Source: Escherichia coli (GTDB lineage Bacteria; Pseudomonadota; Gammaproteobacteria; Enterobacterales; Enterobacteriaceae). From it: 64,000 bases of DNA. Positions 47,164-48,885 of the stretch are shown here, piece after piece. Under the pieces are notes generated by a model. That model made no database searches. It was given only the letters and a program-made list of their open reading frames with translations, and was not told the DNA's origin. Position 1 is the stretch's first letter; every line of letters starts with the position of its first letter. Location of the stretch: assembly GCF_003018115.1 (NCBI RefSeq), contig NZ_CP027457.1; one strand, given 5' to 3'. Position numbers and translations under genes: made by a program.

Positions 47164-47183
47164 CCACGCCCTGAAGGACGTGG
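47164..47183. repeat. subterminal imperfect hairpin of the IS (tnpB-proximal end)
   Basis: CCACGCCCTGAAGGACGTGG: 5-bp stem, C/A mismatch, 2-bp stem, TGAA loop; 14 nt beyond the tnpB stop. Confidence 0.6.
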
Positions 47184-47196
47184 ATCCCTGCTACGT

Positions 47197-48405
47197 TCAG
47201 GCTGTCGCCTGAATCATTTCGGTGGGTTCCTGCTTCAACGGGCGGCCTGACTGCACCATCTCTCCACAGGCAAGAACGGCGTGCCCCGCCGCTAAAATGT
47301 TACGAGCGCCATTTACATCAGCGTTCGCTGTATATCCACATGCCTGGCATCTGAATTTACTTTGTGACAGGCGATTTTCTTTCGCTGTATGACCACAGCA
47401 CGCGCAACGCTGGCTTGTGTACGCTGGCGGAACAGCAAGCACCTGACCGCCACGCCAGAGCTGCTTGTACTCAAGCTGGCGGCGCATTTCATACCAGCCC
47501 TGATCCAGTATCGAACGGTTTAAACCTGATTTTGCCCGGACATTGCGCCCCGGCTGGCTGACCGTACCCGCTGCTGACTTTGACATGTTGCTGACCTTCA
47601 AATCCTCAATGACTATCATTGCGTGGTTTTTGCTGACGGTCGTTGTGACTTTGTGAAGGTAGTCCCTGCGGATATTTGCGATACAGGAATGCAGTCGCTG
47701 TATTTTGCGTTTCTGCTTCTGCCAGTTGTTGCTGAATTTGACCTTGCGGCTTAACTGTCGCTGAAGTCTCGCCAGCGTCTTCTGGTTTTTCTGAAAACTG
47801 TTTACAGGCTCAAAGACTGTGCCATCTGACAGCGTGGCGAGTTTAGCCACGCCAGCATCCAGCCCGACCATTGATGCTGAAGGGTGAGCCGGAGTGGATA
47901 CTTCACTTTCTGTCTGAATACTGATGTACCACTTACCGCAGGACTGGCTGACAGTGACATTTTTCACAACACCCGTGACCTGACGGCTATTCCGGTAGCG
48001 CATCCAGCCCAGTTTCGGCAGAAAAATACGGCTGTTTTCCTGATCGAGCTTAACGCCCTGCGGGTAGCGGAATGCATCATTCTGTCCCCGCTTTTTGAAT
48101 CGGGGAAAAGCAGCCCGCTTCCGGAAGAAGTTTTTGTAAGCCCGCTCAAGGTCTTTCAGTGACTGTTGCAATGGCTGTGACGGGGCATCTTTAAGCCATT
48201 GCGTTTCAGTGACATTTTTCCACTCAACCAGCCAGGAAGCCATTTTCCCGTAAGGGATGTATTTATTACCGGCCTCATGATTCTCATTCTGAAGCGCCAG
48301 AGCACGATTGAAAACGAAACGACATGCGCCTGCGAAGCGCCTCATTTCACGCTCCTGTTGACCACCGGGTCTTAACTGGAATTTAAATGCCTGTAGTCGT
48401 TTCAC
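47197..48405 (-). CDS. tnpB: TnpB (IS605 OrfB family, RNA-guided RuvC-like nuclease)
   Basis: 402-aa ORF with GTG start; RuvC-like motifs [20 protein letters not shown] and zinc finger CACCGH...CQACGY. Confidence 0.9.
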
Positions 48406-48412
48406 AGGCCAA

Positions 48413-48844
48413 ATGATACTTTGGTCTGTGAAAAAAGAAACCGATATCCGGCGTGGAAGGCATTGTGTTTTCCTGATGCATGTTCACCTGGTCTTTGTCA
48501 CCAAATACCGACGCCAGATTTTTGACCATGACGCGACAGAAAAACTACGCACTTACTTTTCAAAGGTATGTGCTGATTTTGAAGCTGAACTGGTTGAAAT
48601 GGATGGCGAACCAGATCACGTCCATTTGTTAATTAACTATCCTCCCAAACTGGCGATATCCAGTCTGGTAAACAGCCTCAAAGGCGTATCGGGTAGGTTA
48701 CTGCGACGAGATCGACCAGATATTGCAGTCAGGTATTACTACAAAGGCGTTTTGTGGAGTCCTGGCTATTTTGCCAGTAGCTGCGGAGGTGCGCCAATAT
48801 CCGCCATCCGTCAATACATTGAACAACAGCAAACACCTGGTTAG
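48413..48844 (+). CDS. tnpA: IS200/IS605 TnpA (HuH single-strand Y1 transposase)
   Basis: 143-aa ORF with KYRR, HuH motif HVHLL and catalytic-Tyr region [15 protein letters not shown]; true start may be the internal ATG at 48476. Confidence 0.85.
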
Positions 48845-48865
48845 GTGGAAAACCGCGCCGTATAT

Positions 48866-48885
48866 CCCCGCCCTGAAGGACGGGG
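48866..48885. repeat. subterminal imperfect hairpin of the IS (tnpA-proximal end)
   Basis: CCCCGCCCTGAAGGACGGGG: same core CGCCCTGAAGGACG and same mismatch geometry as the hairpin at 47164-47183. Confidence 0.6.

Follow-up and report, generated by a model that had tools for sequence, protein, structure and literature searches.

A 64,000-nucleotide stretch of the Escherichia coli contig NZ_CP027457.1 (assembly GCF_003018115.1; hereafter the window) contains two short hairpins that bracket an insertion sequence (IS) carrying the genes tnpA and tnpB. We conclude with high confidence that these hairpins are the subterminal imperfect palindromes of the left end (48885-48866) and the right end (47183-47164) of an intact copy of IS609, and that they act as single-stranded DNA of the minus strand. 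The IS609 hairpins are already known biology, and the finding is correct but ordinary. It matters for annotation only, where it supplies the exact ends, the orientation and the target of this IS609 copy and identifies a TetR-family gene, not a spacer, as the place of insertion.

Identity and boundaries of the insertion sequence

The RefSeq annotation of this locus gives an intact "IS200/IS605-like element IS609 family transposase" adjoining InsQ/TnpB, and the same arrangement was found at the same locus in 1,699 of 5,426 complete E. coli genomes. TnpA was recognised by Pfam Y1_Tnp (PF01797; 3e-42, 144 bits against a cut-off of 23) and by NCBIfam transpos_IS200 (NF033573; 2e-43, 147.6 bits, cut-off 55). 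It is homologous to the solved TnpA structures of IS608 (PDB 2a6m/2vjv, E = 3e-19) and ISDra2, with which the HVH motif and the tyrosine align. TnpB was matched by Pfam OrfB_IS605, Cas12f1-like_TNB and HTH_OrfB_IS605, by NCBIfam guided_TnpB (6.5e-116, 387.8 bits, cut-off 100) and, with homology over the full length, by the ISDra2 TnpB structures in PDB (E = 1.8e-54). The right-end hairpin (bases 1-29 of a query of 57 bases) fell under insQ/TnpB in all matches listed for the 5,426 genomes.

The boundaries of the element follow from an empty site in strain Z30. This site reads ...CTGATGTG/ATAAACCAGG... (the slash marks the junction, and the right side begins with ATAAACC), so the IS comprises positions 47154-48901, or 1748 bp, with an ambiguity of 1 nt (G) at the junction. 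A model that had previously examined this DNA from its letters alone (the sequence-only reading) had proposed that the hairpins localise the IS ends to within a few tens of bp, and that a comparison with the uninterrupted locus would pin the junctions and the target motif. Both proposals held: the ends at 47154 and 48901 lie 10 nt outside the hairpin on the tnpB side and 16 nt outside the hairpin on the tnpA side, respectively, and the empty site yielded the junctions together with the target motif TTTAT. Identical ends were present at four other E. coli sites, next to ydcO, yedK and yfeD and within a DUF3251 gene. We found neither terminal inverted repeats nor a target duplication in the empty site and the five occupied E. 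coli sites. On the plus strand, every E. coli copy is followed by ATAA(A/G), which corresponds to (T/C)TTAT directly 5' of the element on the minus strand, and no conserved motif was found in the flank on the other, right-end side of the E. coli IS609 copies. The cleavage motifs derived here, TTAT for the left end and TCAA for the right end, agree with those given independently for IS609 in work about P1-like plasmids (PMC6906374). At the sequence level, the copy thus combines a Y1 HUH TnpA, subterminal palindromes in the same orientation, site-specific insertion without duplication and an asymmetric layout of cleavage sites and guides, as in the IS200/IS605 family. The earlier attribution of the hairpins to the subterminal structures recognised by Y1 transposases was borne out by the RefSeq name, the mapped ends and the covariation described below.

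Sequence and fold of the hairpins

The first hairpin, CCACGCCCTGAAGGACGTGG (20 nt, 47164-47183 on the plus strand), lies 14 nt beyond the tnpB stop codon, and the second, CCCCGCCCTGAAGGACGGGG (20 nt, 48866-48885 on the plus strand), lies 22 nt beyond the tnpA stop codon. The sequence-only reading had located both hairpins exactly, on the same strand, including a C/A mismatch in the stem as seen on the plus strand. They are direct, not inverted, copies of each other and differ in the window copy by one compensated pair (C-G versus A-T). The 14-mer CGCCCTGAAGGACG is common to both and occurs exactly twice when both strands of the window are searched. When up to two mismatches are permitted, one extra match appears at 7926, where 0.64 would be expected by chance. 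Elsewhere, the hairpin occurs only within IS609 or its 46-bp derivative (see below).

In the DNA fold, both copies adopt an 8-bp stem with a 4-nt loop. The sixth stem pair is a C/A mismatch on the plus strand and a G·T wobble on the minus strand, where all eight pairs form; the mismatch noted earlier is explained as the complement of the minus-strand wobble. The hairpin at 48866-48885, folded together with an outer stem, has an energy of -18.1 kcal/mol (z = -4.0), which results from its nesting in an outer 8-bp helix formed by 48855-48862 with 48889-48896. A 5-bp core of this outer helix is kept in 13 relatives and includes one compensatory pair (C-G in nine, T-A in four); the row for locus L011 in the left-end alignment of the relatives has wrong coordinates and is to be disregarded. 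The outer helix might hold the 16-nt linker in place or limit extra pairing with the target, by analogy with a proposal for a second hairpin of IS608.

The active strand, cleavage sites and predicted guide pairing

In the IS200/IS605 family, all transposition chemistry takes place on one strand, called the "top" strand. In IS608, a target tetranucleotide precedes the left end on its 5' side. Cleavage takes place 19 nt 5' of the hairpin at the left end and, at the right end, at TCAA, 10 nt 3' of the hairpin (PMC3201880). The guides lie 5' of the hairpins and form the pairs AAAG (left guide, GL) with TTAC and GAAT (right guide, GR) with TCAA (PMC5934647). Read on the minus strand, the window copy has the layout TTTAT/CCGGTGCGCCGTAAAA, the left hairpin CCCCGTCCTTCAGGGCGGGG, then ... 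GGAT, the right hairpin CCACGTCCTTCAGGGCGTGG and AGGATGTCAA/, where the slashes mark the ends of the element. TTTAT or CTTAT was found at five of five E. coli insertion sites and in ten relatives, on the left-end side only, and the right terminal 10 nt are invariant in all full copies and relatives. Under the IS608 scheme, AAAA fits TTAT, and GGAT fits TCAA with one G·T. The target motif, the terminal TCAA, the 16/10-nt asymmetry, the guides and the G·T pairs fit the minus strand only, which identifies it as the functional strand, in place of the plus strand on which the sequence-only reading had drawn the hairpins. With the minus strand as the top strand, the tnpA-side hairpin belongs to the left end and the tnpB-side hairpin to the right end. 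An extra T-A pair on the right-end stem was considered and rejected, as the guide would then read GGGA and lose its fit to TCAA; the register aligned with the left end was kept. The minus strand is G-rich in seven of eight bins of the region and is therefore read as the lagging-strand template. A preference for the top strand on the lagging-strand template is known for the family (PMC5027513).

From the likeness to IS608, ISDra2 and ISGst, we infer the following biochemistry for the window copy. The minus strand would become exposed, most likely as the lagging-strand template, and each end would fold into its 8-bp stem with one G·T. Each folded hairpin would then be bound by one subunit of a dimer of TnpA (Y1/HUH). 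At the left end, AAAA would pair with TTAT of the flank 16 nt upstream, and at the right end GGAT would pair with the terminal TCAA 10 nt downstream. TnpA would cut after TTAT and after TCAA, so that a single-stranded circle would be released and the donor resealed, and insertion would take place 3' of another TTAT.

Covariation in relatives and apparent decay of other copies

A scan with TnpA over one genome per species gave 43 loci, in 22 of which both ends were found about 1.25-1.8 kb apart. In these relatives, the guide and the target covary: elements with AAAA stand at TTAT, and four elements with AAAG stand at TTAC (two Yersinia ruckeri sites, a Plautia symbiont and an Enterobacteriaceae metagenome-assembled genome (MAG)). 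Counting the 46-bp copies, all AAAA ends except one adjoin TTAT. All 24 distinct ends have A as the third base of the guide. Applied to an enterobacterial relative, the IS608 rule for guides and cleavage sites predicts the target from the sequence alone. The stems covary as well. On the minus strand, 93.8% of the stem cells of the 24 ends are paired, compared with 43-58% in slid registers. Among the stems of the relatives, pair 3·18 is found as C-G, A-T, T-A and T·G, and pair 6·15 as T·G, C-G, G-C and T-A; the covariation score was reached by none of 500 shuffles. Non-Watson-Crick cells are G·T in 31 cases when read on the minus strand and in 11 when read on the plus strand, an excess to be expected if selection acts on the minus strand. 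The anatomy of the element is established by its exact ends, its target motif, the covariation of the stems and the covariation of guides with targets.

Several points weigh against this interpretation. The hairpin at 47164-47183 has a folding energy of -7.9 kcal/mol (z = -1.8), and 11 of 200 shuffles were as stable, which is not significant by itself. Thermodynamics alone is thus not decisive, and the case for the hairpins rests on context and comparison. The match between the right guide and the right cleavage site requires one G·T pair, and a decayed relative (L006) has AAAA adjoining TTTAC. The sequences used for the covariation are related, so that several of the changes may each have arisen once and been passed on to more than one locus. 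The biochemistry and the transposition mechanism are carried over from IS608, ISDra2 and ISGst. For the guide-RNA role of the right hairpin that is discussed below, the Rfam models retrieved at the E-value threshold, HgcC (E = 0.018, 23.5 bits, gathering score 50), sot0042 and RAGATH-18, all stayed below their gathering scores.

The IS609 copies at ydcO (K-12/BL21), at yedK, in the DUF3251 gene and at yfeD carry a pseudogenised tnpA. In three of them (L002, L003 and L005, at ydcO, yedK and yfeD), point mutations break pairs of the left or the right stem, for example CCCCATCC, GGGCAGGG and CCTCG...CGTGG. As far as the sequences tell, these stem mutations are consistent with the decay of immobile copies. 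The window copy is among the minority with an intact tnpA, and both of its stems are unbroken; with an intact transposase gene and two hairpins free of mutation, it looks mobile.

A distant TnpA clade of about 50% identity (L038-L042; Photorhabdus, a Collinsella MAG and a Paceibacterota MAG) has the end hairpin CCCTCGCCC-AATGC-GGGCGGGG, whose 5' arm contains an unpaired T. Its right end finishes with GTCAC, the flank motif is approximately TTAG(C), and nearly identical elements occur across very different phyla.

Other explanations for the hairpins

The hairpins could instead be intrinsic terminators of tnpA on the plus strand and of tnpB on the minus strand, and their likeness to each other could be incidental to transposition. 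Each hairpin does lie just beyond a stop codon, and the one at 48866-48885 is followed by TTTT on the plus strand. However, a consensus scan called neither hairpin. On the tnpB sense strand, the tnpB-side hairpin is followed by AGGATGTCAA, which has no T run, and on the tnpA sense strand the stem contains the C/A mismatch and is followed by just four T. Termination would also leave unexplained the fixed distances of 10 and 16 nt to the ends, the covariation of guides with targets and the survival of the hairpin in the 46-bp copies, which carry no genes. We consider this explanation very improbable, although the hairpin may serve as a secondary terminator for tnpA.

Still less credible is the proposal that only the tnpB-side hairpin is functional, as an element of the omega-RNA of TnpB, and that the tnpA-side hairpin is a non-functional duplicate. 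In its favour, the right-end hairpin belongs to a conserved RNA fold and is covered by the sub-threshold matches to HgcC and sot0042. Against this, the left hairpin is equally conserved across about 15 relatives, has a compensatory change of its own in L015 (T·G to G-C), and carries a 5' tetranucleotide that covaries with the target motif; the copies with a tnpA pseudogene accumulate hairpin mutations at both ends. An RNA role of the left hairpin is unlikely, given its antisense orientation to tnpA and its distance from tnpB.

The notion that the hairpins are REP-like extragenic palindromes of the host, or a chance repeat flanking the IS, can be dismissed. In its favour are the short, GC-rich and palindromic form of the hairpins and the existence of single-hairpin copies that lack tnpA and tnpB. 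However, the hairpins are absent from the empty site and move with the IS to every insertion site, the single copies stand at TTAT with termini (16 nt and 10 nt) identical to those of IS609, TnpA scores 25.3 bits with the REP-associated transposase model NF047646, below the cut-off of 80 for REP/RAYT membership, and the 14-mer is present just twice in the window.

The right-end hairpin and a predicted TnpB guide RNA

As a palindrome of the IS609 right end, the hairpin at 47183-47164 may have a second function in RNA. A transcript of the tnpB 3' region that reads through would carry this hairpin as the final stem-loop of a TnpB guide RNA, then the 10-nt tail and then the flank beyond 47154, which would serve as the guide; a guide RNA for TnpB requires such read-through. 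A consensus fold of the last ~150 nt from 12 relatives contains seven compensated pairs (for example A-U/G-C 6:5 and G-C/A-U 6:5), and compensated pairs lie within the tnpB coding region. Rfam gave no match within the IS at the gathering threshold, and the sub-threshold matches were taken as a lead only, not as evidence of membership; those to HgcC and sot0042 align the terminal, right-end hairpin almost base for base. The top strand of the empty site reads ...GGTTTAT/CACATCAGTATGG..., and the putative target of TnpB would consist of TTTAT followed by CACATCAGTATGGTTT. A donor-joint arrangement of this kind is cut by TnpB in ISGst and ISDra2 (PMC10055086). From the conservation and by this analogy, we infer a guide-RNA role for the right hairpin.

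A 46-bp derivative with a single hairpin

A 46-bp element, CCGGTGCGCCGTAAAA-CCCCGTCCTTCAGGGCGTGG-AGGATGTCAA, consists of the left 16 nt of IS609, one hybrid hairpin and the right 10 nt. The hybrid hairpin CCCCGTCCTTCAGGGCGTGG combines the left 5' arm with the right 3' arm and has a C/T mismatch at pair 3·18. All copies examined stand 3' of TTAT. The distinct sites number at least 12 and are spread over plasmids, phages and prophages, and a full-length match is present in over 60 E. coli records. The loci comprise L050 (2496-2541, pSOI121-1), L051 (pMTY9803_Col2), L052-L059 (401-446) and L061-L097, and none lies in the window. The sites include positions downstream of the terminase gene in P1-like plasmids, upstream of hok in plasmids and downstream of nleD, as well as prophage tail-fibre regions, phage 933W and a Col plasmid. 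Several phage contigs from outside E. coli have 46-bp copies with the CAGGTG... variant of the relatives.

This derivative could matter more than the hairpins themselves. It is a trace of earlier IS609 activity in plasmids and phages, and in all Stx1 phages examined it separates stxA1 from a Fur-box-like promoter region. A 46-bp copy stands 42 nt before the start codon of stxA1 in each of the 81 Stx1-phage records with this region. The copy at stx1 (L057, 401-446) has one C-to-G change in the stem and is located between the Fur-box-like GATTATCATTTTCATTAC and stxA1. It is already present in the 1987 sequence of phage H-19B (M17358; M17358.1, L098), at nt 72-117. We found no description of a 46-bp form of IS609 in the literature that could be searched: full-text searches with the hairpin and left-end sequences returned no paper, and a search for IS609 together with stx1 returned resistome surveys only.

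The two hairpins of IS609 are direct repeats, so IS609 can collapse to 46 bp, and a deletion across the directly repeated hairpins is the simplest origin of these copies. At the sites tested, the long and the short form did not coincide, a pattern compatible both with deletion in place and with another origin. Junction queries against the 5,426 genomes detected no full-length IS609 at the stx1 or the tail-fibre site, and in the same genomes no 46-bp copy was found at the full-length sites in the ytfA-like gene and at ydcO, where one apparent match was dismissed. At the P1-like plasmid site, the flanks had no match in the phage collection, so there was no empty site to compare. In strain HH45 (H251; L060, 150-200), the ydcL-ydcO site contains TTTAT, about 20 G and the last 22 nt of the right end in place of IS609; this poly-G junction is probably an assembly artefact, although it could be an unusual deletion.

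The sequence-only reading had named the occurrence of the hairpins in genomes lacking the IS as an observation that would speak against it. Taken literally, the 46-bp copies without tnpA and tnpB are such a case, but they do not overturn the reading, which stands because the copies are collapsed IS609 ends and not independent host repeats. The 46-bp element might itself have been mobilised in trans by TnpA, in which case it would be the smallest known IS200/IS605 derivative and would have spread on its own to phages and plasmids, with the Shiga toxin 1 operon leader as one of the sites reached. We regard this as doubtful. With one hairpin only, the guide AAAA would face TCAA, which it does not fit, so that TnpA acting in the canonical way would leave the right end uncut; independent mobility is therefore unlikely. 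For the terminal-only 52-bp forms of Haloquadratum walsbyi, a core deletion mediated by repeats has been given as the origin, and possible mobilisation has been suggested (PMC3119063).

Insertion context and feature coordinates

Compared with the empty site of strain Z30, in which a TetR/AcrR (ytfA-like) gene of 215 codons overlaps the 3' end of ytfB, IS609 is inserted exactly after codon 180 of 215 of this gene. The window copy of the gene also lacks the first 82 codons, and RefSeq annotates two pseudogene fragments. The ytfB-yjfZ locus named in the sequence-only reading is accordingly not plain spacer at the site of the IS, which splits the gene. In Z30, the neighbour is a 3-ketoacyl-ACP reductase in place of yjfZ; the locus is therefore variable independently of the IS. 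The other Rfam matches above the gathering score in the window are the ES239 sRNA (38453-38575), a Magnesium-II riboswitch (8139-8254), the RpsF leader (51770-51854), naRNA4 (18431-18508), STnc450 (33824-33881) and ES036 (33702-33744), all of them ordinary E. coli features unrelated to the hairpins.

Table 1. Coordinates of the IS609 copy, its ends and the surrounding features in the window
Feature	Positions	Strand	Remarks
Complete IS609 copy, 1748 bp	47154..48901	top (active) strand -	ends from the empty site and four other insertion sites
tnpA, Y1 HUH transposase, intact	48413..48844	+	antisense to the top strand; HUH motif is HVH, catalytic Tyr in RQYIEQQ
tnpB (insQ), RNA-guided endonuclease	47197..48405	-	sense on the top strand
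Left-end imperfect palindrome (IPL)	48866..48885	-	CCCCGTCC-TTCA-GGGCGGGG on the top strand; second hairpin of the sequence-only reading
Right-end imperfect palindrome (IPR)	47164..47183	-	CCACGTCC-TTCA-GGGCGTGG on the top strand; first hairpin of the sequence-only reading
Outer helix around GL and IPL	48855..48896	-	48855-48862 pairs with 48889-48896, GCGCCGTA/TACGGCGC; from the DNA fold
Target and left cleavage motif TTTAT (core TTAT)	48902..48906	-	outside the IS, directly 5' of the left end; would double as the target-adjacent motif (TAM) of TnpB
Left-end 16-nt linker CCGGTGCGCCGTAAAA	48886..48901	-	last four bases AAAA (48889-48886) are the predicted GL
Predicted right guide GR, GGAT	47184..47187	-	many relatives and IS608 have GAAT
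Right-end terminal 10 nt AGGATGTCAA	47154..47163	-	ends in TCAA (47157-47154), the right cleavage site (CR)
Predicted omega-RNA scaffold	47154..47300	-	overlaps the tnpB 3' end up to the right-end boundary; 5' limit approximate
Flank predicted as omega-RNA guide, CACATCAGTATGGTTTCACC	47134..47153	-	by read-through; directly after TTTAT in the empty site
C-terminal fragment (~residues 181-215) of the TetR/AcrR (ytfA-like) gene	47049..47153	-	overlaps the ytfB 3' end; tblastn with the intact 215-aa protein
Middle fragment (residues 83-180) of the same gene	48902..49195	-	Pfam TetR_C_29 match

Comparison with known systems

By its RefSeq name and the published cleavage sites, the window element is IS609 of E. 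coli, a member of the IS605 group, and we found no substantive difference between the two. IS608 of Helicobacter pylori resembles IS609 in its Y1 TnpA, in the palindromes located on one strand at both ends and in the end TCAA 10 nt 3' of the hairpin. In both elements a guide lies 5' of each hairpin, and its third base is A, the position that is inserted into the protein in IS608. The IS608 pair of left guide and left cleavage site (AAAG with TTAC) and its right guide GAAT are also used by relatives of IS609. The two elements differ in gene arrangement, since tnpA and tnpB have the same direction in IS608 and are divergent in IS609, as in IS605. They also differ in the target (TTAC in IS608, TTAT in IS609), in the length of the left linker (19 versus 16 nt) and in the irregularity of the stem, which is an extrahelical T in IS608 and a G·T wobble in IS609, where the left hairpin is further enclosed in an outer helix.

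As in ISDra2 of Deinococcus and ISGst2 of Geobacillus, the right end of IS609 lies just past tnpB, so that a read-through transcript would carry the flank as a guide. The TAM of the ISGst2 TnpB2, TTTAT, is the same as the TTTAT of IS609 (PMC10055086). In contrast to these two elements, the omega-RNA of IS609 is a prediction from a conserved fold and sub-threshold Rfam matches.

The terminal-only PATEs of Haloquadratum walsbyi (52 bp, from ISHwa23 and HqIRS46) resemble the 46-bp copies in that both termini are fused across one copy of a palindrome that is directly repeated near the ends, and in that the short form stands at sites without the long form (PMC3119063). The 46-bp copies differ in being found in Enterobacteria, phages and plasmids and in deriving from another parent IS. 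The REP/RAYT systems share with IS609 short GC-rich hairpins and a Y1 HUH protein that reads a 5' tetranucleotide together with the stem. However, REPs are high-copy extragenic sequences of the host served by a domesticated single-copy transposase, whereas IS609 has a bona fide TnpA of the IS200 type and its hairpins are part of the mobile IS.

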